From IMG/VR virus record IMGVR_UViG_3300014201_000003, positions 1 through 45,665 of that record: 45,665 nt of DNA; one strand, given 5' to 3'. Source of the DNA: a virus. Taxonomy: Duplodnaviria; Caudoviricetes. Below are positions 2,527 to 37,793 of the stretch, one piece after another. A program made the position numbers and the translations under genes. Under the pieces are notes generated by a model that worked only from the letters and a program-made list of their open reading frames with translations, did not search any database and was not told the DNA's origin. Each line of letters opens with the position of its first letter. Position 1 is the stretch's first letter.

Positions 2527-2555
2527 TTGACTTTCCCGCCCGCCCATGTTATCAT
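2527..2555 (+). promoter_or_regulatory. Putative sigma70-type promoter of the packaging/virion operon
   Basis: TTGACT-17 nt-TATCAT with extended TG; IHF-like box at 2496-2520. Confidence 0.7.
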
Positions 2556-2610: not shown

Positions 2611-3111
2611 ATGAAAATCGATCAGAAAGAGCTAGAGCGCCGCCTGGCATCAGGCAACAACATAGCCAACACAGTCGTGGAGCACCGCTCGCGCGCCGTG
2701 GGTCGGCGAGGCCCTGAGCTGCCCGCATCTGTCAAAGATAGCATCGCCGTCCTAGCTCACGAGCCAGGGTCCCGCCAGAAGCACCTAGCCGCAGAGTTTG
2801 GGGTGTCCGTCGCGACTATCGGAAACATAAAGCGGGACCCAACGGATGCCGCCCAGAAAGAGATCGACACTAATCGGAAGAACATTCAAGACTCTGCTCT
2901 CCGTAAGTTGATGTCATCCTTGAATCTTATCTCCGATGATAAATTAACCGACCTAAGCCCTAAAGAATTGACCAGGGTAGCTCGGGATCTAAGTTCGATA
3001 GTCGGTAACCTCGAAGAGAAGCAAAAGGAAACAGACCAGACTCAGGTGAATGTTATCGTCTATGCTCCTCAAACCGTCGAGGAGAAGTCCTACAAGACTG
3101 TAGAAGTGTAA
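2611..3111 (+). CDS. HTH-containing protein, probable terminase small subunit
   Basis: HTH-like RQKHLAAEFGVSVATIGNIK, a helical middle and a C-terminal beta-strand (VNVIVYAP). It is the first gene of the packaging operon. Confidence 0.6.
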   Translation: MKIDQKELERRLASGNNIANTVVEHRSRAVGRRGPELPASVKDSIAVLAHEPGSRQKHLAAEFGVSVATIGNIKRDPTDAAQKEIDTNRKNIQDSALRKLMSSLNLISDDKLTDLSPKELTRVARDLSSIVGNLEEKQKETDQTQVNVIVYAPQTVEEKSYKTVEV

Positions 3112-3187
3112 AAAATGACTTACGACGCTGGGATATTTTATATCCTTGTGATATGGATTATCCTCGATAGATTTAATATTTATTTTT

Positions 3188-3343
3188 ATGGGTCCCATAA
3201 AACCAAAGAAACCAAAGCCAGCTTCGGTAAAACCGAAGATGATAAAGCCAAAGAGTCCTGTGCCGAAGACGAAGGTTAAAGGTCCGAGATTAAAGAACCT
3301 TACACCTAACGTCCGAGGGTTGGGTGGGATCGGTCAGTTTTAA
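3188..3343 (+). CDS. Candidate 51-aa Lys/Pro-rich basic peptide
   Basis: Hand translation: MGPIKPKKPKPASVKPKMIKPKSPVPKTKVKGPRLKNLTPNVRGLGGIGQF. A competing overlapping ORF exists at 3115-3279 (54 aa, hydrophobic N-terminus). Confidence 0.5.
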   Translation: MGPIKPKKPKPASVKPKMIKPKSPVPKTKVKGPRLKNLTPNVRGLGGIGQF

Positions 3344-3371
3344 TATTTTAAGTTTTTAAGATTTTAAGTTA

Positions 3372-4463
3372 ATGAACTCGCGTACAGCACAACTCGCTCA
3401 CGCCCAGATGCTTCTTCCAGAAGATAGGAAGATTGCGTCACATATGAGAGGGTTCGAGCAGACCCGGGCTCCGCGCCTACGGGATCTGTGTGGTGCTGAC
3501 GACATCCTCGGCTGCATGTCCAAAATGACGACGGGAGCATCGTCATTAGGACGTGCAGCTGAGGTGCTGACCGACATGCTTCGGTCAGCTCAGATCGTCT
3601 TAACATTAAGCGGCGTCGCATCGGTTGGTAAACTCGATTATATCATAGCGGAACTCATCGACATGGGGTTCATCAAAGCTGTCGTTGCGACAGGCGCTGT
3701 AATAACCCACGGATGTTCTCACGAGATGGGTGGGAAGATGTTCCATATCGACGAGGAGCAGGTGGATCAGGGAGTCGATGTTGGATTGTATAACCGAGGA
3801 TTGAATCGGGTATTTGACACTGTAGAACTGGAAAAGTCGCTCGAAGATACTGGGGATTTAGTCTGCGACATCTTAAGGTCGGGAGTGATGGGAGACTGTT
3901 TTGGGTCCTTTGAACTTCACTGCGAGATGGGAAAGTATTTGAATAAACACTGCCCGCATGAGGATGGGATACTCCACGCAGCGGCTCGCAAGAAAGTTCC
4001 GGTCTTCGTGCCTGCGTTCACCGACTCTGAGATCGGCTTGGCTGTCATGCGTTACCTCTTCGAGGAAGATGAACCATTCTATGATGGCTTCCGAGATTTC
4101 AAAGAGTACGCTGACTGGGCTAAGAACGCGACAAAGCCTTTAGGAATATTAACACTCGGAGGTGGGGTTCCGAGGAACTGGGCTCAGCAGATCGGACCGT
4201 ACTTCGACACACTCACAGACAGAAAAATGATAGAGTTACCAAAACCTATCAGATTTCAATATGCTGTAAGAATCTGCCCGGAGGTAACGAATTGGGGAGG
4301 GCTATCAGGGTGCACCTACTCTGAGGGGATTAGTTGGGGAAAATTTATCCCGGAGAAGGAGGGTGGGAAGTTTGCTGAAGTCTATGCAGATTACACTCAT
4401 GTATTTCCTCTACTCATTCGAGGCGTGATGGAGCGGGTGAGGCCGATGCCTCAAGGAAGATAG
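3372..4463 (+). CDS. Deoxyhypusine synthase family protein (DHS / DHS-like homospermidine synthase)
   Basis: Motifs VATGA, VPAFTDSEIG, LGGGVPRNW, GGLSGCTYSEGISWGK (catalytic Lys324) and EVYADYT. Length 363 aa is typical. Confidence 0.92.
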   Translation: MNSRTAQLAHAQMLLPEDRKIASHMRGFEQTRAPRLRDLCGADDILGCMSKMTTGASSLGRAAEVLTDMLRSAQIVLTLSGVASVGKLDYIIAELIDMGFIKAVVATGAVITHGCSHEMGGKMFHIDEEQVDQGVDVGLYNRGLNRVFDTVELEKSLEDTGDLVCDILRSGVMGDCFGSFELHCEMGKYLNKHCPHEDGILHAAARKKVPVFVPAFTDSEIGLAVMRYLFEEDEPFYDGFRDFKEYADWAKNATKPLGILTLGGGVPRNWAQQIGPYFDTLTDRKMIELPKPIRFQYAVRICPEVTNWGGLSGCTYSEGISWGKFIPEKEGGKFAEVYADYTHVFPLLIRGVMERVRPMPQGR

Positions 4464-4464
4464 T

Positions 4465-4653
4465 ATGGAATTAACTGAGGACTACAAAGAGGCTAGACCG
4501 TTAATTATCGTCGCCATTGGATTTGTGATTTGTTTAATTCACAGAAAGGAGCTCTCATCTGATCCTTCAGTTTTTGGTAATAAGCTAGCTCCTAAAGAGA
4601 AAGCTATGGAGCACGCTAGGGATTGGGTTAAAATTCTAGAGGCAGAAAAATAA
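4465..4653 (+). CDS. Hypothetical protein, 62 aa, one hydrophobic segment
   Basis: Tightly packed in the operon with 1-nt gaps. Confidence 0.6.
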   Translation: MELTEDYKEARPLIIVAIGFVICLIHRKELSSDPSVFGNKLAPKEKAMEHARDWVKILEAEK

Positions 4654-4654
4654 A

Positions 4655-4858
4655 ATGAATTCTTGGGAAAATGCACTTCTTCAATTCATCGTAGCTGCGG
4701 CTGAGACCGAGCTACCTCTATTCATACACTCGAAGCAGGGAGTTGCTGTGCTCAACGTAAGTGAGCCGCTCGCGAATGCGCTGGTGACGGCACTCTCATC
4801 TACGCCTTCTACAGCTTCGACCCAAACCACTACTACGACTCAGACGACGACAAAGTAA
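4655..4858 (+). CDS. Hypothetical protein, 67 aa, Thr-rich tail
   Basis: Tightly packed in the operon. Confidence 0.7.
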   Translation: MNSWENALLQFIVAAAETELPLFIHSKQGVAVLNVSEPLANALVTALSSTPSTASTQTTTTTQTTTK

Positions 4859-4868
4859 AGGAGAATAC

Positions 4869-5273
4869 ATGCCTAGCGACTACGCAGTTCCTATGTCAGC
4901 AAATTACGCACTCAAACTTCAGTTTGGGTCAAACATTGGCAACTCAACCACACTAACGGCGATCACTGTAACGGTCTCAGACACGACCAACGCTTACGTG
5001 GCCGACGCTGGTGCGAACGGAACCTGTTATCTATGTCCACGTGAAAACTTTGGGGGAACTCCTCTATCAGCTCTACAAACGTTAACTTTGCAAGTGAACG
5101 CAAAAGACACCAGCGGTAACTCACTTCCTGTGCTCACACTCACAGTGGATCTCGACCCAGCGGCACCTCCGCCTCCCGTAGCGACGTCAATCGTACTCCA
5201 ATCCGGTGGAGTCGTTGCGCTGACCTCAACCCCGACCGACCCTGGTACCGCTACGGTAAGCGTCACGTCCTAA
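4869..5273 (+). CDS. Beta-rich, Ig-like hypothetical protein
   Basis: AAGGAG RBS; alternating Thr/Val strands and a PPPP linker. Confidence 0.65.
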   Translation: MPSDYAVPMSANYALKLQFGSNIGNSTTLTAITVTVSDTTNAYVADAGANGTCYLCPRENFGGTPLSALQTLTLQVNAKDTSGNSLPVLTLTVDLDPAAPPPPVATSIVLQSGGVVALTSTPTDPGTATVSVTS

Positions 5274-5274
5274 T

Positions 5275-5523
5275 ATGACGACATTAACTTACACCGGAGT
5301 GTCGGAGGAAACTTACAATGCCCTCCTCACCGAGCTTGAAAAGAGCGGTGGGAAACTAACGCCGACGACAGAAGGCTATCACGTGGAGGCTCACAACGTG
5401 AGTGCGGTGGTTTCTTACGACGCTGCGAAAAGCGTCGCAACCGTAGATATCATCTCCAAGCCGTTCTATGTTACGATCGCTGAGATCGATAGTGGAATCT
5501 GGAAATGCCTAGGAGTGAAATAA
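5275..5523 (+). CDS. Hypothetical protein, 82 aa
   Basis: Tightly packed in the operon. Confidence 0.7.
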   Translation: MTTLTYTGVSEETYNALLTELEKSGGKLTPTTEGYHVEAHNVSAVVSYDAAKSVATVDIISKPFYVTIAEIDSGIWKCLGVK

Positions 5524-5527
5524 GTAA

Positions 5528-6022
5528 TTGAAACACCAACGTCAACGTGCCGCTTCGATCATCTTCCACTTCGGGAGGCGACACAGGTTTTGGGAACTTC
5601 TCGATCTGTTTAGGAGGCACAAAGGAAAAATGCAGTTTTCACTCGTTGCGGGTCAGCTGGTGAATGTTTTCGGCACACCGGTGATTGCCGACGGCATCAC
5701 ACCAAGTACCGCTACATTGAGTAACCAGGCTTATTTGAGTTCAGACACGACTATATTTACAGTCGCGCCTGACCCGAATACTCCAGGTGGAACGATTATC
5801 ACGTCAGTTGGTGTCGGATCGGCGACGTTGACTGAGACGGCTATAGCTACAGAGTCTGACGGGAAAACGACGGAGAATATTCAAGGCGTCGCGACGATCG
5901 TCGTGACTACTGCACCTCCGCCACCTTCTCCGCGAGCTGCATCAATTGTATTCACATTCGGGACGCCTTTCTCAGGCCCGAGCACAGGCAGTCAAGTAGC
6001 TACAAGTTTGAAGAAGTCCTGA
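5528..6022 (+). CDS. Ig-like hypothetical protein (alternative ATG start at 5630 with AAGGA RBS)
   Basis: SSDTTIFTV...GVGSATLT resembles bacterial Ig-like group 2; PPPP linker. Confidence 0.6.
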   Translation: MKHQRQRAASIIFHFGRRHRFWELLDLFRRHKGKMQFSLVAGQLVNVFGTPVIADGITPSTATLSNQAYLSSDTTIFTVAPDPNTPGGTIITSVGVGSATLTETAIATESDGKTTENIQGVATIVVTTAPPPPSPRAASIVFTFGTPFSGPSTGSQVATSLKKS

Positions 6023-6023
6023 T

Positions 6024-7661
6024 ATGTCCGATCTGATCTGGAAACCTAGTAAGCGACAGGAAGAGTTTATTCAGGTTCCAGATACTGTAAGGGAGGGCTT
6101 CTTTGGTGGGGCAGCAGGAGGAGGAAAATCAGAACTCCTCCTCATGCTGCCCATTGTTAGGAAGTTTTATCAGTACCCTCGATTCAAGGGGATACTGTTC
6201 AGGAGAACTTATCCTGAGTTAGAAAAATCCTTGATCTTAAGAAGTCAAGGTGACGGTTATTACGCAGCCACAGGAGCGGATTATAATAGGACACTTCGTA
6301 GGTGGAGGTGGCCGAGCGGAGCGGTACTCGACTTTGGTTACGTTGAATTAGAGCAGGATGTTAGAAAGTATGACACGACTGAATACAATTATATTGGATG
6401 GGATGAACTTACTTCGTTCACTGAATTTCAATATGTGTATATCACAATGTCTCGTCTTCGTACTTCTGACGGTAATTTACCTACTATTTGTCGTTCTGCA
6501 TCTAATCCAGGGAATACCGGCCACGGTTGGGTCCGGTCCAGGTTTGTTGAACCGGCTCCATACGGTACGATTATTGTAGATAAACGGACGAAGATGAAGC
6601 GTATCTTCATCCAAAGTTTACCTTCAGATAATCCTTACTTGATGAAAGCTGATCCTGGTTATGTAGCTGCACTGGAGCTACTACCAGAAGCTGAGAAGCG
6701 AGCCAAGCTCTACGGAGATTGGTGGACGTTCTCAGGCCAGGTATTTGAGGATTTTAGGGTTGCACGACTACCTGATGAGCCTGAAAATGCTTGTCACGTA
6801 ATCCAACCGTTCAATATCCCGGACTGGTGGCCAAGAGTTATTGGTGCTGATTGGGGGTACGCTGCGATGAACTGGGTCGGGTGGGCTGCTGCAGCACCTA
6901 CCGGCCGAGCGTACATGTATAGAGAGTACGCGACCAAGAAGACGTTGATTGCTGACTGGGCTTCAGTAGTGGCTCAATGCTCCCAGAATGAAGACATTAG
7001 AGATGCAGTGTTAGATCCTAGTGCCTTCTTCAAGGTGGGTGGCGAGAAAACAATATCGGAGCAGGTCAGGGAGCACTCTGGTATTGATTTTCGTAGAGCT
7101 GATAATGACCGGCTTGGCGGTAAGAACATGATGCAGGAATATCTTAGGTGGAGACCAAAACCTCCTAAATATATTCCGCCTGAAGGATTCGATCCGGACC
7201 TCGCAGCGACGATATTAAGGCGCCGAGGCCAAGAAGAGTATGAGAAATATTGCGCTGTATTTACTGAGGAAGAACCGGAAACGAATCTGCCGAAGCTACA
7301 GATATTCGGTGGGGAACCGCTCGAGCAGTACGGGACGTGTCCGGAATTTATTAAGTGTATCCCCCTCTGTGTGTACAACACAAAGGATGGCTCGAAAGAG
7401 GATGTTGCAGAGTTTAACGGCGATGATCCTTACGACGGTGGCCGATACCTAATAAACGCTATTGACCGTTTCTATAAAGAGTCTAAGAAAACTTACGTGA
7501 AGATTCAGGCTCGTGATAACATAGTAAGTAGATTCTTGAAGACGGGTGATTATACGAGCCTTCATAGAGAAATGGAGCACTTTGAGCGGAATGAGAAAGT
7601 GGCTAAGAGGGGTGTTCCTAGGTTCCACGGAAGAATGCCGCGCATGCGTCGCTTTACGTGA
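6024..7661 (+). CDS. terL: Terminase large subunit
   Basis: Q motif PSKRQ, Walker A GGAAGGGKS, Walker B YIGWDE, motif III SASNPG, nuclease IGADWG and DDPYD. Confidence 0.95.
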   Translation: MSDLIWKPSKRQEEFIQVPDTVREGFFGGAAGGGKSELLLMLPIVRKFYQYPRFKGILFRRTYPELEKSLILRSQGDGYYAATGADYNRTLRRWRWPSGAVLDFGYVELEQDVRKYDTTEYNYIGWDELTSFTEFQYVYITMSRLRTSDGNLPTICRSASNPGNTGHGWVRSRFVEPAPYGTIIVDKRTKMKRIFIQSLPSDNPYLMKADPGYVAALELLPEAEKRAKLYGDWWTFSGQVFEDFRVARLPDEPENACHVIQPFNIPDWWPRVIGADWGYAAMNWVGWAAAAPTGRAYMYREYATKKTLIADWASVVAQCSQNEDIRDAVLDPSAFFKVGGEKTISEQVREHSGIDFRRADNDRLGGKNMMQEYLRWRPKPPKYIPPEGFDPDLAATILRRRGQEEYEKYCAVFTEEEPETNLPKLQIFGGEPLEQYGTCPEFIKCIPLCVYNTKDGSKEDVAEFNGDDPYDGGRYLINAIDRFYKESKKTYVKIQARDNIVSRFLKTGDYTSLHREMEHFERNEKVAKRGVPRFHGRMPRMRRFT

Positions 7662-7980
7662 GCAGGTTGCGAGCTTAAAAGATGAAATTAATTTTCTTAG
7701 ACAAAGAGAGACTGTCCTTACGGATGGGATTTACCGAGCTGCACGAATTGATGAAAGCTCGAGGCCTAACGTCGGACGAGGACCTAAAAACGAACCAGTC
7801 CCATCAGCTAATAGCTGGAATGCGGTTAAGACTAAGCTCGAAGCTAAGCACAAAGCTAACCCGGCGGCCGACAGGACTGCAAAGTACTGGGCTGATAAAG
7901 TAGCTCAACAAGAGAAAGAATTGAATGAAATTGAGCGGGATATAAAAGAAGATGCCAGCAACCTCAGGGAAGCAATATAG
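7591..7980 (+). CDS. Hypothetical coiled-coil protein with CxxC
   Basis: Part of ORF 7546-7980; likely ATG at 7591. It overlaps the end of terL. Confidence 0.65.
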   Translation: MRKWLRGVFLGSTEECRACVALREQVASLKDEINFLRQRETVLTDGIYRAARIDESSRPNVGRGPKNEPVPSANSWNAVKTKLEAKHKANPAADRTAKYWADKVAQQEKELNEIERDIKEDASNLREAI

Positions 7981-8122
7981 ATTCATGCAAGCAGCAGCTC
8001 ATGGAGGCCTGAAAGGGTTAGGTCCATCTCCTGAAGTTGCTGAGGAGTTTATACATAAAACTCCTCCCGCTAAACGATCGATGTGGAGCAACGGCAAAGA
8101 CAAGAAGAAAAAGAAAAGCTAG
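7952..8122 (+). CDS. Small basic phage protein, 56 aa (MPATSGKQYRFMQAAAHGG...KDKKKKKS)
   Basis: Hand translation. It fills the gap before the portal and its TAG overlaps the portal GTG. The MPxxSxxQxRFMxAxAH start resembles small proteins I recall from phage head modules. Confidence 0.7.
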   Translation: MPATSGKQYRFMQAAAHGGLKGLGPSPEVAEEFIHKTPPAKRSMWSNGKDKKKKKS

Positions 8123-10536
8123 TGGACTACGACGTAACCCAAGTTGACGATCGAATAAAGGATGCGTGCTACGCTCTGATGCAGGGAGTGGAGCGTGAAG
8201 ATGAATATTTTCGTCTTGAACAGATGCGTGAGTTCAAGAAAAATAACCTCTTCTGGCACGGATTCCAGTATCTATTCTGGTCGGATACCGACATGGATTG
8301 GCGTATTCCTACTCATCAAGAGTGGACAGAAATTTCTGGACGTGAAGAAACAAGATACATTTTTGATTACGTGGTCAATCATTTCAAAGCTCATGGAGAA
8401 GCCATCATTGCTGCTCTTTCTGCTGATATTCCTAATGTACGTTTTGGACCTCGTAATTCCCAGGATCCTGAGGATCGTCGATCTGTGTCGGCTGCGGACT
8501 CGTGTGCGGAACTAATAGAGAAATGGAACAGAGCAAAGCTTTTAATCATCGAGGCTCTATTCTACTTGTGTTGTGAGGGTTTTGTTGCAAGCTACACATA
8601 TAATCGAAAGGACGAAAGTTATGGAACAATCCCAATTCCTCAGTACGATACCAGGCCTGAGAAAGTTACGCCTGATATGCACGTTTGTCCCGCTTGTGGT
8701 AATTCTCAGCCTGTTGATACCGGTGCAGCTCCTACGGGAGGAATGGATACGTCGGAACTTGGGGGTCTTGTTCCGACACAATTTCAACAAGATATTGGGG
8801 CTTCCAGCGTGGGTGACATGCCTAGTGCGCAGGAAAATCAGAACTCTCCTGGTGGAGAAGAGGACTCAGAAGAGCCTGATAATTTGGGCGGCCAATCAGG
8901 ATTAGGAAATCCGGTTTGTTCGTGCGGCGAACAAATGGAACTTCAGCCTGGACAAATGGAGCAAGTCCCATTTATCACAGGTGAAAGGTTAATTCCTAAA
9001 GGCCGTGAGGTCATCGAGGTTTACGGTCCGCTCAACGTTCGCGTCCCTTCGTATGTGACGAAGTTAGCTGACGCTGGATACTTGATTCATTACGTTGATG
9101 CAGACCCAGCTTTATTTCAGGGGACGTTTCCTCAGGTGGCTGACAAGATCGAAGCTGATCCTGGACAGGACTATGAACGCTTGATGCGTCAAAGTTCGTT
9201 GTCTTTGGACGGTTACCAGCTGAATATTAAGTTGGCGACCGAGAAGAAGTGTTGGTTCCGCCCGTGGATGTTGAACCGCCTCCGCCCAGTATATGATGAT
9301 ATTATTCCGGACCTTCAGCAGATGTTCCCGGATGGGATCTACACCTCTTACATCGGTCAAACGATGTGTGAGTTACGGAACGAGTCCGTCGATAAACATT
9401 GGTCGGTAACCAAAGCGGGACCGAGCAAAGGAATTCATGCGGATCCGATCTTGAAGCCTGAGGTTCCGCTCCAGGAGATCACGAATAACCTCTTCAACTT
9501 ATTCGTGATGCAGGTGGAGTACGGCGTGGGTGCGACGTACGCCGACACCGAAGTATTCGATTTTGAGGGCCAAAGTAAACAGGAAGTGAGTCCGGGCTAT
9601 ATTTATCCTGTGAATCCAAGACCCGGACAATCAATCGGTGACGCGTTCTATACGGAACGTGGCGCTTCGTTAAACAAAGAGTCGACAGAGTTGTTAGCGA
9701 CGGTGGCCAACAATGAACAATTCGTCCTTGGAAGCTATCCTTCAATATACGGAGGACCTCAACAGAGCGGCTCAAAAACTCTTGGAGAGTACGATAAGTC
9801 AAGAGCCTTTGCTCTCCAACGACTCGGACTCGTGTATTATTTTATTGATGTCTGGTGGGGAGAGACTGTCCATAAATCAGTCCTCTCTTTCATTGAACAT
9901 CAATTGGAAGATGAGCCACTCACACTTAATTCTCCTGGAGGATTCCAAACTAGATGGATTAAGAAAGCTGATTTTAAGGGGTCCTTCGATCGGCTCGATC
10001 CAGATCCCAGTGCTGACTTCCCAATTAGTTTTGCCCAAAAGCGACAAACCTTAATGGCTTTATTCCAGCTCAACAATCCTGTGATTAATTCAGCGCTGCT
10101 CGCACCTGAAAACGCTGAACTGATTCAACAGTACATTGGCTTGGATGAGATTCGAATTCCGTCTGCTGACCAAAGAAATAAGCAGATCGGTGAAATTTTA
10201 ATCTTGATTGGGATGGAACCTCAAATTGGGATGGATGGAAATCCGATCGCGACAGTTCCAGTAGAGCCTGAGATCGACGATCACGCTGTGCATATTGCAG
10301 TACTGACAGATTTTCTTGTTTCAGATCAAGGTCAGGACCTTAAACAAGAGAATATGGCTGCATATTCAAACTGTATGGCTCATCTGCTCGAACACAAAAA
10401 GTTCCAGCAGATCGCAATGATGCAGCAAATGGCTTTACAGGGGCCGCCCAAAGGAGGCCCACAAAGTCCGAAGAAACAACCAAAGCCTGTAGGACCTCCT
10501 CCACCTGAGGCTCAAGCACAAGGAGTACCGTCATAA
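8122..10536 (+). CDS. Portal protein (P22-like position and size)
   Basis: About 800 aa between terL and scaffold/MCP. Mostly helical, with a DDHAVHI...HLLEH motif and a Q/P-rich C-terminus. The ORF track starts at 8083; GTG at 8122 is preferred. Confidence 0.85.
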   Translation: MDYDVTQVDDRIKDACYALMQGVEREDEYFRLEQMREFKKNNLFWHGFQYLFWSDTDMDWRIPTHQEWTEISGREETRYIFDYVVNHFKAHGEAIIAALSADIPNVRFGPRNSQDPEDRRSVSAADSCAELIEKWNRAKLLIIEALFYLCCEGFVASYTYNRKDESYGTIPIPQYDTRPEKVTPDMHVCPACGNSQPVDTGAAPTGGMDTSELGGLVPTQFQQDIGASSVGDMPSAQENQNSPGGEEDSEEPDNLGGQSGLGNPVCSCGEQMELQPGQMEQVPFITGERLIPKGREVIEVYGPLNVRVPSYVTKLADAGYLIHYVDADPALFQGTFPQVADKIEADPGQDYERLMRQSSLSLDGYQLNIKLATEKKCWFRPWMLNRLRPVYDDIIPDLQQMFPDGIYTSYIGQTMCELRNESVDKHWSVTKAGPSKGIHADPILKPEVPLQEITNNLFNLFVMQVEYGVGATYADTEVFDFEGQSKQEVSPGYIYPVNPRPGQSIGDAFYTERGASLNKESTELLATVANNEQFVLGSYPSIYGGPQQSGSKTLGEYDKSRAFALQRLGLVYYFIDVWWGETVHKSVLSFIEHQLEDEPLTLNSPGGFQTRWIKKADFKGSFDRLDPDPSADFPISFAQKRQTLMALFQLNNPVINSALLAPENAELIQQYIGLDEIRIPSADQRNKQIGEILILIGMEPQIGMDGNPIATVPVEPEIDDHAVHIAVLTDFLVSDQGQDLKQENMAAYSNCMAHLLEHKKFQQIAMMQQMALQGPPKGGPQSPKKQPKPVGPPPPEAQAQGVPS

Positions 10537-32626: not shown

Positions 32627-33804
32627 TTGAATTTCATGTACGCTTCGACCGTTTCTGGAGTCATCGTGTAAACGATCTCTTTGTCTTCACGCTCTGCTGT
32701 GATGGCGTCGGTCTGCACTAACGTCTCGATTATCCTATCAAGCGTTAACGCGTCAAACTCGCCCCAATACTTCGACAGTATTTGTTTTCTAGTTCTCCTG
32801 TGATCCGCTCGGTCGAGTAGCTCACGTAAAACAATTGAGGTGGCGTATGCGTAATCACTATTTCCCCCACCCATAGTGACTTTCTTCATACCACCTACAC
32901 ACTCGATTGTTTTACTAATAGCTTCGTCCATATGCTCTCGTGTTATTATCATTTCCGTCGTGTACGATAGTGAGATATTCATCGCTACTTTAAGGGCTGT
33001 GTCCCCGAGCCTCTCGATGTTCCCAGTTTGGTCCGAATCCGTCATCTGGGCTAGGTTGCGGTACCAGATGTCATAATCTTTCTTAGCGGACTCCTCGATA
33101 CTAAACTTACCTCTACACTTAGCTACCTCCTTGAGATAAACTGAAAGTTCCTCATCGGTAGGCATCGGTGAGGTTGGTTCATACATGAGTGAATTTATAG
33201 TTCGGCGTTTAAATTCCAATACAACAATTGTTCGAGCTATAAAGCCACCTATGATATCCTTCCTACTTAAGACACTCTTAAAATGAACCTCGTTGGTAGC
33301 TGCTAGCAGATTTATGCATGGCTCTTTAAGAGTGTCGACACCTGCTGTCTTAAGCGTGTTTTTCCAGTGCGGTACGTGAGCGTGAGTGTCGTATAAATCA
33401 GTTAAAATATCGAGTGCTTTGGGGCTCTCAACGAGAAGTGAGGCTAGTTCCCCCGATGTTATGAATCCTGTAGCCTCTTTAACGACCGCACCGTCCGGTC
33501 CTGTTTGAGCTTTCCCGAGGTCTTTGAGAATGGCCTCAATTGTGTTCCGCCCGGATATCACCCGAGTATTGTTTACTATCCCGACGAGCCTCTTAGCTAA
33601 GGATGGTGGGTTTCCTTTTCTTCCTCCTGACTTAGCCATTAAAAGAACGTACATATTTGGGTAAAGTTTATAGGCGTATCTATCCAAATATACATTCTTC
33701 TTAACGCATGCGGCTATTGTCGCTAGACCCGCCCAGTACCAAAATCTTTCAGGTGCTTCGAACTCAGCTGTCCCGTCTACTATAATATCGACCCAGCTAC
33801 GCAA
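32611..33804 (-). CDS. DUF3987/YfjI-like P-loop protein (putative replicative helicase)
   Basis: YPNMYVLLMAKSGGRKG Walker A-like motif, LTDLYD, GGFIAR and a C-terminal winged-helix-like region. It is downstream of the polymerase. Confidence 0.7.
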   Translation of the reverse strand: MRSWVDIIVDGTAEFEAPERFWYWAGLATIAACVKKNVYLDRYAYKLYPNMYVLLMAKSGGRKGNPPSLAKRLVGIVNNTRVISGRNTIEAILKDLGKAQTGPDGAVVKEATGFITSGELASLLVESPKALDILTDLYDTHAHVPHWKNTLKTAGVDTLKEPCINLLAATNEVHFKSVLSRKDIIGGFIARTIVVLEFKRRTINSLMYEPTSPMPTDEELSVYLKEVAKCRGKFSIEESAKKDYDIWYRNLAQMTDSDQTGNIERLGDTALKVAMNISLSYTTEMIITREHMDEAISKTIECVGGMKKVTMGGGNSDYAYATSIVLRELLDRADHRRTRKQILSKYWGEFDALTLDRIIETLVQTDAITAEREDKEIVYTMTPETVEAYMKFKKEVN

Positions 33805-36178
33805 CTTGTTTCATTTCCTTCCAGTTTTTATACCCAACGTGAATTTCTGCTGGGATTACTAACGGATCGCGAGGAAGTGAGCATTTTGAAAAGTCAATAG
33901 GCGTTTCGTACTCCTTAATTAATATTGGTAGCGCTTCGTCGACTCGGTCGATTGGGCACTGAAGAAGAAAAGAGTCGTGAGATTCCATGATTATGAAAGA
34001 TAACCACGGGTATAGTTGCTCTACTCTAACAGCACAGAACTTGGTGTGGTCGGAAACTACAGCCTGTGGAATAAAGGATAATGCTTCTTTTAGCATATCC
34101 TCTCCCCACCTATCAAAGAATTGCCGACGTCGGCCGTGAGCGGAAAACAGAACCTGGTCATTAGCGTAGAGTGCCTGCTCGATTTCCTCCCAGAACACAC
34201 CAGCTATCTTTGGGTTCTCAGCGTGAAATCGTTCAAGACACTTTCCTGCACGCCACTCACTAATTTCGGCTAGAAGACTTAGCCGTCGCTTACCCATCTT
34301 ATAGTTACCGGCGTGTCTAACTTTCTTACCGATCTGACGATCATCAGCCGTAATCGCGTCAAAATCCATCCCAAGAACCATCATCGTCGTTAACGTATGA
34401 CGATCGTCTTTCAAACCGAATTTGTTTCTTTTGAACTCTTTCTTTCCTAAAAGAGCTTTTCCCTCCTCATCATTTGCTAGATGCGCGACTACCCAATCCT
34501 CAGCTTGTTTACCGTCGATCTCGAGGAAGCAATAACCAGAATCCGGAACATACATGGATCGTAGGTCCGCACCTACGTCTCCATGCTTCGTCATTGTCTG
34601 AAATGCAACTCCCATCGGTTCCACGGTAATCGGCTGTTTAGGTTTAGAGGTACTAGTACGTCCAGACTCAGTTCCATTAATATTATAGGTTGTTCGACAC
34701 CGGCCATCAGGCCAGAGTTTGGCTTTGACGTATGTACCTTGAGTTTTACGGGATTTTCTTCCTTTGAGAATATTTCCGATAATTCTCTTTCTTCGCTCAT
34801 CTTTAACAGCATTAAGCATGAGCATAGTAAGCGTTTCCTCGTCGGTTCCTTTCCGCACCGGGCATTTAAGATCTCCATAAAGAGATGCAGCGACCTGTTT
34901 AGGAGACATGACGTTAAGGTCGTACCCAAGATCTCGTCTAAGACTAAAGTTAATCCAATTGGTATAGCGCTCGTATTTTCTGGTAAGACGTTTTCGTTCT
35001 GTGAGGTCAATTTTAAATCCTCTCTTTTCTAACCGAGAATAAAATCCATGAAGAGGCATGACTTTCTCAAAGAAAAAGTCCTTAACTCCAGCCTCTTCTA
35101 GCTGAGGCTCGATTTTCTCCCAGCATTCGATTGTTACTGCTGAATCCTTTGCATTATAACGTAAACGCTTATCGAGTTTATCTTTATTTGGGCTATACTC
35201 TTCGAGTTCATCCTTGTAGTATGGCTCCTCTGTGAGTATAGAAGATATGAACTCGAGAGCTTTTGGTAGCTCAGAATATAAGCAATGCCACGCCATTCCC
35301 ACGTCAGCCCAGAGCGGAGCATTTACTAAACCGATCTCCTCGTTTCTCCCCTCATCAAACTTCCAGTTCTGGCCGATTAACTTATACTGTGGGTCTAGTA
35401 GCATATCCGTTACAAGTTTCCATAGGATAACCATATCATGAAGAGCGATACCTTCTGGATTTTGATCCGACATTAAATCGAAGAGCGGGACCGAGATAGC
35501 CTCATATTTTGAGAACGCAAAAGATATACACATTGGTATAGTTTTGAACGTCTCAATATCAGAGGCCATCACGACGCGCTTAGCGTTCCGCTCTCGAAAT
35601 CGAATTAAATCGAGAGAACTACGGCAGCGGATCAAAGTCCGATCTGGAAGTTTTAATTCTCTGAACTGAGATTGTTGGATCGCACGATTGACGTCGAATT
35701 GAATGAAAGCTTTATCTCGATAAGATTTCATCTTTCCATCAGTTTCGTGGAATAACGATGCAGGATGGATCGAGCCGACTACTTTGGGTAGACCGGAGTG
35801 ACAGTTACTCAGTATCGATCCTCTATACTTTTGTATGCCAGTCTGGCCTGTTAGTGCTTTGAGGGCTACGTTTCCAAATGCTAGGATACAGTTCGGTTTA
35901 ATCGACTCAATTTCCTGCCATAACTTCGGGATAAACTCCTCGATCGACACTCCTAACTCTTTAAGTCGATGAATCTCGTTATCGGGTGGACGGACCTTAC
36001 ACACATTCGTCTTATAAATTTCAGACGGGTCCATCCCACCCTTGTAGAGGCACTCATCCACTATCTTCCCGGAGGGACCCACGAATGGTATTCCCTCTTG
36101 TTCTTCGTGATATCCTGGCGCTTCACCCACGACTACGAGCTTAGCGTTTGGATTTCCGTATCCCTGGACGTATCTCAT
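33797..36178 (-). CDS. polA: Family A DNA polymerase with N-terminal uracil-DNA glycosylase-like domain (SPO1-type architecture)
   Basis: UDG family 4-like GEAPG...PFVGPSG, TNV and HPA; 3'-5' exonuclease DIET, NWKFD and YNAKD; polymerase motifs TESGRTS, DGKQAE, RQIGKKVRHAGNY and HDS. Confidence 0.92.
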   Translation of the reverse strand: MRYVQGYGNPNAKLVVVGEAPGYHEEQEGIPFVGPSGKIVDECLYKGGMDPSEIYKTNVCKVRPPDNEIHRLKELGVSIEEFIPKLWQEIESIKPNCILAFGNVALKALTGQTGIQKYRGSILSNCHSGLPKVVGSIHPASLFHETDGKMKSYRDKAFIQFDVNRAIQQSQFRELKLPDRTLIRCRSSLDLIRFRERNAKRVVMASDIETFKTIPMCISFAFSKYEAISVPLFDLMSDQNPEGIALHDMVILWKLVTDMLLDPQYKLIGQNWKFDEGRNEEIGLVNAPLWADVGMAWHCLYSELPKALEFISSILTEEPYYKDELEEYSPNKDKLDKRLRYNAKDSAVTIECWEKIEPQLEEAGVKDFFFEKVMPLHGFYSRLEKRGFKIDLTERKRLTRKYERYTNWINFSLRRDLGYDLNVMSPKQVAASLYGDLKCPVRKGTDEETLTMLMLNAVKDERRKRIIGNILKGRKSRKTQGTYVKAKLWPDGRCRTTYNINGTESGRTSTSKPKQPITVEPMGVAFQTMTKHGDVGADLRSMYVPDSGYCFLEIDGKQAEDWVVAHLANDEEGKALLGKKEFKRNKFGLKDDRHTLTTMMVLGMDFDAITADDRQIGKKVRHAGNYKMGKRRLSLLAEISEWRAGKCLERFHAENPKIAGVFWEEIEQALYANDQVLFSAHGRRRQFFDRWGEDMLKEALSFIPQAVVSDHTKFCAVRVEQLYPWLSFIIMESHDSFLLQCPIDRVDEALPILIKEYETPIDFSKCSLPRDPLVIPAEIHVGYKNWKEMKQVA

Positions 36179-36313: not shown

Positions 36314-36610
36314 TCATTTCACTTTTCCTCTCGTCACTGAATCAACGAATGCATTATGATGGAATTTAGAGTGCTCTGGTTCAATATACTCCAGAGCACA
36401 GTAGTTAGCAATGTTAAGAAGATGCTCGCCGTTACCTGTCTTATCATACTCTTTGAGTTCGAGCTTTAGACGGGTGAAATATTTCTTACTCTTCTTAGGT
36501 TCACCGTATCGGTAATGACCAAAAGCGAGCCTGTTTATCATCTTCTGGAAGAAATGAACGAACTGAATCTTTTTAGGCTGTGACGGAAGCAAGTCGACGT
36601 TCAATACCAT
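36314..36610 (-). CDS. Hypothetical helical protein, possibly MazG/nucleotide-pyrophosphohydrolase-like
   Basis: GHYRYG...TGNGEHLLNIANY. The start is uncertain (ORF track gives 36694). Confidence 0.55.
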   Translation of the reverse strand: MVLNVDLLPSQPKKIQFVHFFQKMINRLAFGHYRYGEPKKSKKYFTRLKLELKEYDKTGNGEHLLNIANYCALEYIEPEHSKFHHNAFVDSVTRGKVK

Positions 36611-37793
36611 CGAAGAACTTTTTGTCTCTCTCAATGATGACATATCGTCTCCCAATTTTCTTGCACGCTTCTGCTGTGACACCAGAACCTCCAAAAGGAT
36701 CCAGGACTAAGCTACCCTCGAAACTGCATTGCTCCAAGAAGTGAATTGGAACATCTACCGGCTTTTCGTTTGGGTGAATAAGTTTGGTTGGGTGTACGGC
36801 TGGAGATGAGTATACAGCGCTCGGTTGACCTGACATGGACAATACTGGCGAGCCTTTCACGGCAAGTAAGATTGGCTCGTAGTCCCGCCCGTACTCCCAC
36901 GAGCGAGTACCATGTGAGATCACATTTTGCTTGTGCCAGATGAGCGGCATCTGGCTCACAGTGAAGCCGATCTTGGCTAACTCTTGACGGTAAATGTAGA
37001 AATCGTCAGTAGAGCAAATCACGTAGAGGAATGAGCCGTGCTTCAATACACGGTACACCTCTTTAAATACCGGTAGGGTTTTGTCGTCCTTGGTCAGCTT
37101 CGCATCTTTATACTCCAGCCAGGGCGGATCAGTGAAGCAGACGTCGAACTTAGCTGAGGGAAGCTGCTTAAGTATCTCGGATGAATCTCCCAGATACACC
37201 GTGTTCACTTCGAAGTCAACTGGAGCCAGAGCTTCATCTTCAGTATTCATGCGCTGAGCTTTTTTGAGGATAAATCGACGTGCAGTCACTTTATCTTTGA
37301 TTTTCTTCAGTTGAGGGTCGGCTTGGCACGCCTCTGCGAGTTTAATATCCTCAGATAGATTCCCAAATCCCATACCAAGCTCTTGAGCCGTGTCACGTAA
37401 CGACCAGCCAACCTTGGCTCCTTGACGTCCCACACCGTGCTGCTTCCTACGCAACTCGTGTAGTTTTGCTTCCATCTCACACACGGCCCACCATTCGAGA
37501 TTGGCTCGCTTGAGGTTCTCGTGGATATGGATTCTTTCCGCCTCATCCTCTGAGACGTCTTGAGACAACACCAAACAAAGTGCTGTCTCTCGACCTAATG
37601 ACTTTAATGCGTGATAACGCTTATCGCCGGTCTTAATTGCATAGGCATTATCTCCATGGTGAACAACAGTTATTGGGTGTAGAAGATAGCCAATCTCTTT
37701 TATTGAGCTAGCTAGTTCTTGTATGTCCTCTGGTTTATACTCCGTCGGAGGTTTCTTTGGATTAATTAAGTCTATTAGTATCTCTTGAATCAT
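36573..37793 (-). CDS. ParB/Srx N-terminal domain fused to an N6-A/N4-C DNA methyltransferase (beta class)
   Basis: ParB-like LASSIKEIG, GDKRYHA and ENLKR; HTH region; MTase motifs TDPPW, HPNEKP and VLDPFGGSG. Confidence 0.9.
   Translation of the reverse strand: MIQEILIDLINPKKPPTEYKPEDIQELASSIKEIGYLLHPITVVHHGDNAYAIKTGDKRYHALKSLGRETALCLVLSQDVSEDEAERIHIHENLKRANLEWWAVCEMEAKLHELRRKQHGVGRQGAKVGWSLRDTAQELGMGFGNLSEDIKLAEACQADPQLKKIKDKVTARRFILKKAQRMNTEDEALAPVDFEVNTVYLGDSSEILKQLPSAKFDVCFTDPPWLEYKDAKLTKDDKTLPVFKEVYRVLKHGSFLYVICSTDDFYIYRQELAKIGFTVSQMPLIWHKQNVISHGTRSWEYGRDYEPILLAVKGSPVLSMSGQPSAVYSSPAVHPTKLIHPNEKPVDVPIHFLEQCSFEGSLVLDPFGGSGVTAEACKKIGRRYVIIERDKKFFDGIERRLASVTA

Follow-up and report, generated by a model that had tools for sequence, protein, structure and literature searches.

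A deoxyhypusine synthase-family enzyme linked to a Lys/Pro-rich peptide in the late operon of a tailed phage, and its possible action on small basic virion proteins

The stretch of DNA analysed here (‘the window’) is a complete virus record of 45,665 nucleotides with direct terminal repeats, whose gene content (a large terminase subunit, TerL; a PolA polymerase with a UDG domain; an SNF2 helicase; and a cell-wall hydrolase) is that of a tailed bacteriophage, a bacterial host being suggested by the hydrolase (PF07486) together with PolA. In its late operon (Table 1), a gene of the deoxyhypusine synthase (DHS) family sits between a TerS-like ORF and TerL, with five small ORFs separating it from the latter; this placement, first proposed in a preliminary description of the locus, is confirmed by matches to phrog_2538 (weak) and phrog_979. 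Homologues of the TerS-like gene are present in the related loci L002, L019, L110, L111 and others. When 50,697 GenBank phages were searched, the best matches to the window’s TerL reached just 30-36%, and no match was found for the portal or for the product of the second small basic gene. Six sigma70-like sites were found, as against 3.5 +/- 1.6 in shuffled sequences, which is not significant. Contigs from two RNA runs, which show neither level nor strand, cover the start of the TerS-like gene and positions 4390-6117, with little over the peptide and DHS genes. Elsewhere, the window encodes a PolA whose N-terminal domain is a family-4 UDG, and also a ParB-N6/N4 methyltransferase fusion (33797-36178 and 36573-37793 (-)); a role in DNA hypermodification was considered and dropped, base-modification families being absent among the 50 window ORFs scanned.

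Table 1. Features of the window and of related loci (window coordinates unless a locus is named)
Feature	Position	Strand	Remarks
sigma70-like promoter match, extended -10	2527..2555	+	upstream of late operon; consensus match only, 10/12
TerS-like gene	2611..3111	+	phrog_2538, weak, E 1.2e-4; left border of variable interval
Overlapping alternative ORF, 54 aa, hydrophobic N-half	3115..3279	+	possibly a gene
Lys/Pro-rich basic peptide gene, 51 aa, candidate substrate	3188..3343	+	[LV][KR]G[LI]G motif at end
DHS/SpeY-family NAD-dependent transferase, 363 aa, catalytic K324	3372..4463	+	Pfam DS match
Terminase large subunit, TerL	6024..7661	+	phrog_979, E 3e-43; right border of variable interval
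Second small basic gene, phrog_16759-like, possible second substrate	7952..8122	+	family profile
L002 peptide, 34-aa Lys/Pro ORF	L002:3697-3801		55 nt downstream of DHS
L019 161-aa ORF with the peptide as its N-terminal 34 aa, overlapping the start of DHS	L019:2306-2791 (- strand; oriented 6468-6953)		
Small basic gene of another family, abutting DHS	L003:5841-5990		directly upstream
Small basic gene of another family, abutting DHS	L004:5664-5861		directly upstream
Small basic head-module genes	7952-8122; L002:8501-8662; L112:1858-2034; L113:4804-4980; L122:3845-4224		

The gene is a full-length member of the DHS family, as first claimed. The Pfam DS profile (PF01916) matches residues 45-350 of its product at E 8e-59 (199.7 bits against a cut-off of 27, with positions 2-286 of the 288 in the profile covered), the SWGK motif is encoded with a lysine, K324 (codon 4341-4343), that is kept in 12 of the 12 sequences compared, and the predicted AlphaFold model (mean pLDDT 73.8) finds its best structural matches among solved DHS structures (top match 7cmc, E 4e-17). 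The database form of the protein begins at 3408 (351 aa). Below the level of the family, the enzyme falls under all seven NCBIfam equivalog cut-offs, both those for canonical DHS (best PRK00805, 181 against 434; TIGR00321, 140 against 304) and those of SpeY type (PRK02492, 146 against 500; PRK00770, 147 against 450). It matched no PHROG family, nothing among the 50,697 GenBank phages and no BFVD structure at E <= 0.001.

The ORF that stops 28 nt before the DHS gene has precisely the composition first ascribed to it: 51 amino acids with 12 lysines, 10 prolines, no acidic residues and four KPK units. Only two of the 120 ATG ORFs of 40-70 aa within the window reach a combined Lys and Pro content of at least 40%. 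The ORF exists as described from 3188, but its conserved core comprises only the last 34 residues, from an internal ATG at 3239 (the L002 peptide is equally long), and its true start is uncertain because conservation is confined to that core. The window, L002 and L019 peptides all end in [LV][KR]G[LI]G; the basic residue of this best-conserved motif is an arginine in two of the three, and the window peptide has no eIF5A-like loop.

That the Lys/Pro-rich ORF is no gene, the frame at 3115-3279 being the real one and DHS standing alone, seems very improbable. The lack of a Shine-Dalgarno motif before 3188 and the low complexity of the similarity speak for that reading, as does the scarcity of database relatives: among 1.84 billion representatives only two peptide matches were obtained, the L019 ORF itself and one 1147-aa repeat protein. 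Against it, DHS has a homologue of the peptide beside it in each of two other phages, identity at third codon positions being at background level (8/30 and 8/31), as in DHS itself; stop codons also interrupt the alternative frame in both L002 and L019. The product of 3115-3279 was matched by blastp to nothing from the ORFs of related loci, and its similarity to the membrane protein phrog_19950 is at E 0.12 only. Thus the peptide, whose possible lack of conservation had been raised at the outset, proved conserved, and the competing frame did not; both ORFs could nonetheless be real. Further searches for peptide relatives yielded nine candidates, none of which scored, five pattern matches in viral contigs, none of them confirmed, and no usable match in the Atlas search; since small ORFs often go uncalled, all these nulls are weak.

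Peptide homologues flank DHS in all three of the close loci that have both flanks, in three different arrangements (upstream of the enzyme in the window, downstream in L002, and overlapping its start in L019), so that related phages do keep a Lys/Pro-rich ORF next to DHS. Shuffles that preserved composition attained the observed score in 1 of 5000 trials for window and L019, in 31 of 5000 for window and L002, and in 358 of 5000 for L002 and L019, the last of these similarities being by itself not significant. Each peptide, when held out, ranked as the top segment of its own source (3/3; 1307, 303 and 265 segments), and the score of the held-out L002 peptide, 89, was beaten by one control segment, at 100. 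Identical peptide residues are encoded by different codons in 12 of 15 and 10 of 13 cases; nucleotide identity over the three codon positions is 18/18/8 of 30 and 17/20/8 of 31, against 0.64/0.77/0.33 for DHS, positions 1 and 2 being inflated by the use of a protein-made alignment. The L019 peptide continues in frame into a signal peptide-like stretch and a Cys-containing domain, so that its stop codon may have been lost, or the product may be a form anchored in the membrane. Short tandem AT-rich repeats, differing in sequence between the two phages, occupy the peptide-DHS spacers at window 3344-3371 and L002:3655-3696.

The TerS-TerL intervals of the window, L002 and L019 span 2.9-3.8 kb; DHS is the sole strong match common to all three, and the peptide is the sole other in-frame one (for window and L019 by tblastn, with the L002 copy taken from the shuffle and held-out comparisons). 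One extra tblastx match between intervals, of 14 codons, is off-frame. Among 18 TerL relatives identified, 13 were examined for DHS, which was found in one, the L002 record; PF01916 was likewise absent by profile search from five DHS-less whole terminase-relative records. A peptide profile matched one of 15 records, its own source, with none of 12 DHS-less records (mostly fragments, only two being at least 90% complete) and neither of two subclade-2 records matching; in this profile search the KPK peptide was not found in G014 or G015. The DHS-less records that lack the peptide include the sister lineage L109-L111 (TerL 66-68%). These events are few when counted as independent ones, the three loci forming one terminase clade and the DHS-less sister one loss. 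In the sisters, the TerS-TerL interval holds a very Pro-rich repeat protein (L111:5963-6466 and L110:1074-1544; 42 prolines in 167 aa). The stretch between DHS and TerL of L019 (oriented about 8050-8460) holds a short acidic ORF and a second small ORF that, as judged by eye, resembles a LuxR-type HTH protein.

The best 120 homologues listed comprise the enzyme itself, 11 sequences at 58-78% identity and 108 at 41-48%. In a 52-row tree (which omits P0003 and P0007, both present in a 120-row tree), 14 rows form one clade with support of 99/96, nested within a prokaryotic subfamily marked by a PRNWAQQ motif. Identity within this old clade ranges from 39 to 78%, and three different phage architectures are represented. 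Phage context was seen for five of the 14 rows: the window, L002 and L019, which belong to the same phage family and carry DHS in the TerS-TerL interval; L003, with P22-like portal and coat genes and DHS between TerL and portal; and L004 (record G015), in which an intein-bearing DHS lies at the far end of the late region. The L004 intein is inserted just ahead of the SWGK motif (L004:5872-7542). Seven or eight longer homologues, two of them named as DPANN archaeal, also carry inteins, some with HNH, at a nearby site in the three that were checked.

Two rows, P0078 and L022, form the sister of the phage-containing clade. L022:6105-8156, which follows a LacI-family gene, encodes a 683-aa fusion of a GNAT-like N-terminal domain with a SpeY-type DHS, and the same fusion is found in P0127-P0129 and P0078. 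In a Micrarchaeota locus (L065:181-2581), a PRNWAQQ-type and a canonical DHS lie in tandem. Pattern searches brought little that was new: a single-sequence viral scan gave no DHS in two stretches, the general SWGK pattern gave two matches in viral contigs, neither of them new, and a clade pattern found DHS in three of four viral and seven of 17 metagenome matches, the other 11 being dropped. The seven metagenome loci include the window’s own record (L024), repeats of L002 (L016) and L003 (L012), two loci without an upstream flank (L021, L026) and the cellular-looking L022. The genome scan covered 24 of 64 parts, and prophage copies may thus be missed.

Small basic genes of another family abut DHS in two unrelated phages, L003 and L004. 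The L004 gene aligns with the phrog_16759-like family of the second small basic gene of the window, and the L003 gene probably belongs to that family too; the former is the only match to the family profile in G015, some 50 kb from the terminase, though it was itself in the profile. With an adjacency filter fixed post hoc, once the positives had been seen, an adjacent small basic ORF was found at four of five phage DHS loci (L019 is missed, its peptide being fused), compared with 8 of 78 other phage genes (2/27 among the window’s late genes and 6/51 among head genes from other loci) and with one in 71 DHS loci of cellular origin, nine of the 80 having been dropped for short flanks. If the phage loci are counted as two or three independent lineages, an adjacency rate near 10% gives roughly 0.01 to 0.001. 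Small basic genes are found in DHS-less phages also.

Within the active site, the NAD-fold and the catalytic residues are intact, so that the initial statement that the enzyme’s motifs are preserved holds for these, but it fails for the spermidine site: N269 replaces His288, L223 replaces Asp243 and L311 replaces Asp316, and of the canonical residues (His288, Asp243, Asp316, Glu323) only the last is kept, as E318. The His288 column was placed on what we take to be its position in the GGG..KH motif, where the enzyme reads GGGVPRNW, compared with GGGVPKNF in plasmid SpeY and with KHH or KHA in solved DHS. The Asp316 position is not diagnostic, since a leucine is also found there in 8put and 7cmc. 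The human numbering of His288 follows PMC9117371.

For the bacterial enzyme CdmS, F204 and L286 are described as corresponding to human Asp243 and Asp316, and a model places E293 and S67 at the donor guanidinium and E136 and D143 at the second agmatine, the acceptor role of Asp143 being that of a docking model (PMC10981699). Six CdmS positions were mapped onto Trichormus SpeY at one constant offset of 4, and thence onto the window. CdmS F204, L286, E293, K299 and E136 fall on L223, L311, E318, K324 and E154, as expected of a CdmS-like donor site, and two of the modelled guanidinium binders are missing: S67 falls on V82 (cellular kin are also non-Ser here) and D143 on G161. The Asp143 position is non-acidic in all 16 clade members (G, S or A in 12/12 and F, Y or M in 4/4); elsewhere it is Glu in 84 of 104 cellular kin and in 10 of 10 with an arginine decarboxylase (ADC) neighbour, and Asp in both SpeY. 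In 11 of the 12 clade-1 enzymes an Asp stands one residue after G161, which may compensate for the lost acid. Because the donor side is CdmS-like, agmatine (+113 Da) is a likelier donor than spermidine (+71 Da), and we consider it the probable one on these residues.

In the chemistry reported for this family, the donor amine is first oxidised by NAD+ and its C4 arm becomes bound to the catalytic lysine as an imine; the arm then moves to an acceptor amine before reduction by bound NADH (PMC10981699, PMC9117371). Applied to the phage, the donor would probably be agmatine of the host and the arm would be carried as an imine on K324; it would then pass to lysines of the peptide, with reduction by the bound NADH, adding +113.10 Da per lysine (+71.07 if the donor were spermidine), and some bis(guanidino)homospermidine (G44G) would be expected as a side product. 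The best explanation, at close to an even chance, is that the enzyme modifies small basic virion proteins in this manner, making a DNA-neutralising protein more cationic; the modified peptide would presumably be expressed late, be present in the virion and act in DNA charge neutralisation. The pairing of an enzyme with a dedicated peptide substrate, as originally proposed, gains support from conservation and linkage and is altered in its chemistry, which is probably that of agmatine and not of spermidine. That an old, phage-specific clade has turned a SpeY-type synthase back into a protein modifier, placing N-epsilon-(4-guanidinobutyl)lysine on small basic virion proteins, is a more specific proposal that is offered with greater reserve, as a somewhat doubtful possibility.

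The prior of the family favours synthesis of a free product, because every bacterial SpeY tested is reported to yield G44G (PMC13625781). On that reading the phage enzyme is simply a SpeY that joins two host agmatines into tricationic G44G as a packaging counter-ion, which host ureohydrolases may convert to homospermidine, and the peptide binds DNA unmodified, in the manner of a protamine, and is linked to the enzyme since both serve DNA neutralisation. This is a strong contender, if somewhat short of an even chance. It accords with the SpeY-type motif and the CdmS-like residues (E154, L223, L311, E318, K324) described above, and with the neighbours of cellular kin: at least 10 of 80 loci have an arginine decarboxylase-type neighbour (PvlArgDC at five, SpeD-like at three and AR-fold decarboxylase at two), a lower bound given that neighbour calling is noisy in GC-rich loci and many of the 115 ORFs have no family, and an arginase-family gene is found at five of the 80. 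Homospermidine synthases, with the unrelated HSS fold, are also known from phages (PMC9992855). However, G44G synthesis does not account for a peptide that has kept within 60 nt of DHS despite rearrangements and turnover of the other interval genes, nor for the loss of the Asp143 equivalent in all 16 clade members; moreover, arginase-family, SpeD-like and PvlArgDC genes (PF00491, PF02675, PF01862) are absent from all four phage records, three of them incomplete, and neither an AR-fold ADC nor AIH was found among the 50 window ORFs scanned. Free homospermidine, an option named from the outset, survives as a close rival only in this changed form, since the SpeY route gives G44G and needs a ureohydrolase to reach homospermidine (PMC13625781), a gene absent from the phage.

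Peptide modification was raised to about even because of the tight linkage, the loss of the modelled acceptor acid and the long confinement to late operons, and its odds were pulled back because human DHS refuses small synthetic peptides and requires a folded eIF5A domain (PMC9117371). Also in favour of modification are the acidic cores of the clade-1 enzymes, given below, and, as a proposed precedent, the transfer of agmatine to a protein lysine by Haloferax DHS (PMC5178350). Neutralisation of DNA charge at the packaging stage, inferred from gene position alone, fits both peptide modification and G44G synthesis.

The peptide might instead be a non-substrate partner (a plug, an activator or a chaperoned client) of an enzyme that makes free polyamine, which we regard as improbable. 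Human DHS has a ball-and-chain plug at its active-site entrance (PMC10042821), and besides the tight linkage an acidic enzyme faces a basic peptide: the cores of clade-1 enzymes have a mean net charge of -16.9, more acidic than cellular kin (-6.3), although the two plasmid SpeY are equally acidic (-15.5). The filling of the same slot by two unrelated peptide families argues against a partner. A role of the peptide as a translated leader was ruled out, as the L002 copy lies downstream of DHS.

An action on host translation had also been suggested initially; as modification of host EF-P, speeding translation of Pro-rich virion proteins, we regard it as highly improbable. The late genes contain seven PPP runs against 2.4 expected, and the family does act on eIF5A/aIF5A; but the DHS-less relative L111 is equally Pro-rich, with 18 PP and 2 PPP per 1508 aa (a count that takes in one extra Pro-rich gene) against 6 and 2 per 1364 aa for TerL plus portal of the window. 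Neither an EF-P nor an IF5A gene was found in the phage records, the IF5A family PF08207 being absent from all four. The host looks bacterial, and hypusine is reported not to be found in EF-P (PMC5178350); His288 and Asp243, whose equivalents are replaced in the phage, are both required for hypusination by the human enzyme (PMC10042821).

Of known systems, bacterial SpeY/CdmS, which couples agmatine to itself to give G44G (PMC10981699, PMC13625781), shares with the phage enzyme its fold, catalytic lysine, an Asn in place of His288, hydrophobic residues at the Asp243 and Asp316 positions, and equivalents of E136 and E293; in contrast, the phage enzyme is only 25-28% identical to two plasmid SpeY, lacks equivalents of S67 and D143, and is encoded in a late operon beside a small basic gene without a decarboxylase or ureohydrolase partner. 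Eukaryotic and archaeal DHS, acting on eIF5A/aIF5A, have the same fold, equivalents of K329, W327 and E323, and the alkylation of a protein lysine that is proposed here, whereas in the phage the His288, Asp243 and Asp316 equivalents are replaced, no IF5A is present and the acceptor proposed is a short peptide that is probably unfolded. The PRNWAQQ-type DHS of Planctomycetota, Myxococcota, CPR, DPANN and Thermoplasmata, at 41-48% identity, are the group within which the phage clade is nested; unlike the phage enzymes, they retain an acidic residue at the position of window 161, and small basic neighbours are very rare among them. Diatom silaffins are Lys-rich peptides made more cationic through polyamine chains on lysine, and they offer the phage peptide an analogy only, differing in enzymes, organism and purpose. 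As in RiPP-like pairs, a short precursor gene is kept beside an enzyme, in few independent lineages; no protease or exporter family was found among the window ORFs scanned, and the pair is not classed as a RiPP.

DHS is the textbook case of a modification with one enzyme and one substrate. On a modest reading, the phage enzymes are a first DHS/SpeY lineage from viruses, maintained within the late operons of phages of three architectures. Phage-encoded polyamine chemistry is otherwise known from the HSS of Ralstonia phage phiRSL1 and the AdoMetDC/ADC of marine phages, whose folds are unrelated to DHS, and a 2023 survey of the virosphere detected by BLASTP no SpeY or DHS homologues in viruses (PMC9992855); our own literature search, of listings and abstracts largely outside subscription journals, found no report of a phage DHS. 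If the peptide is indeed modified, the family would gain a second protein substrate, and one short enough to be synthesised; if the product is guanidinobutyl-lysine, this would be the first DHS-family protein substrate beyond IF5A, a new post-translational modification and an enzymatic route to a viral protamine, and the transfer of agmatine to a protein lysine that has been proposed, and is unproven, for Haloferax DHS (PMC5178350) would become testable. A role would also be suggested for the small basic genes, hitherto unexplained, in head modules of phages from soil and wetland. Such genes recur in the head modules of the window’s phage family, with or without DHS (Table 1), and the enzymes of subclade 2 themselves bear N-terminal extensions rich in Pro and Lys (L004:5872-5990 and L026:59-230).
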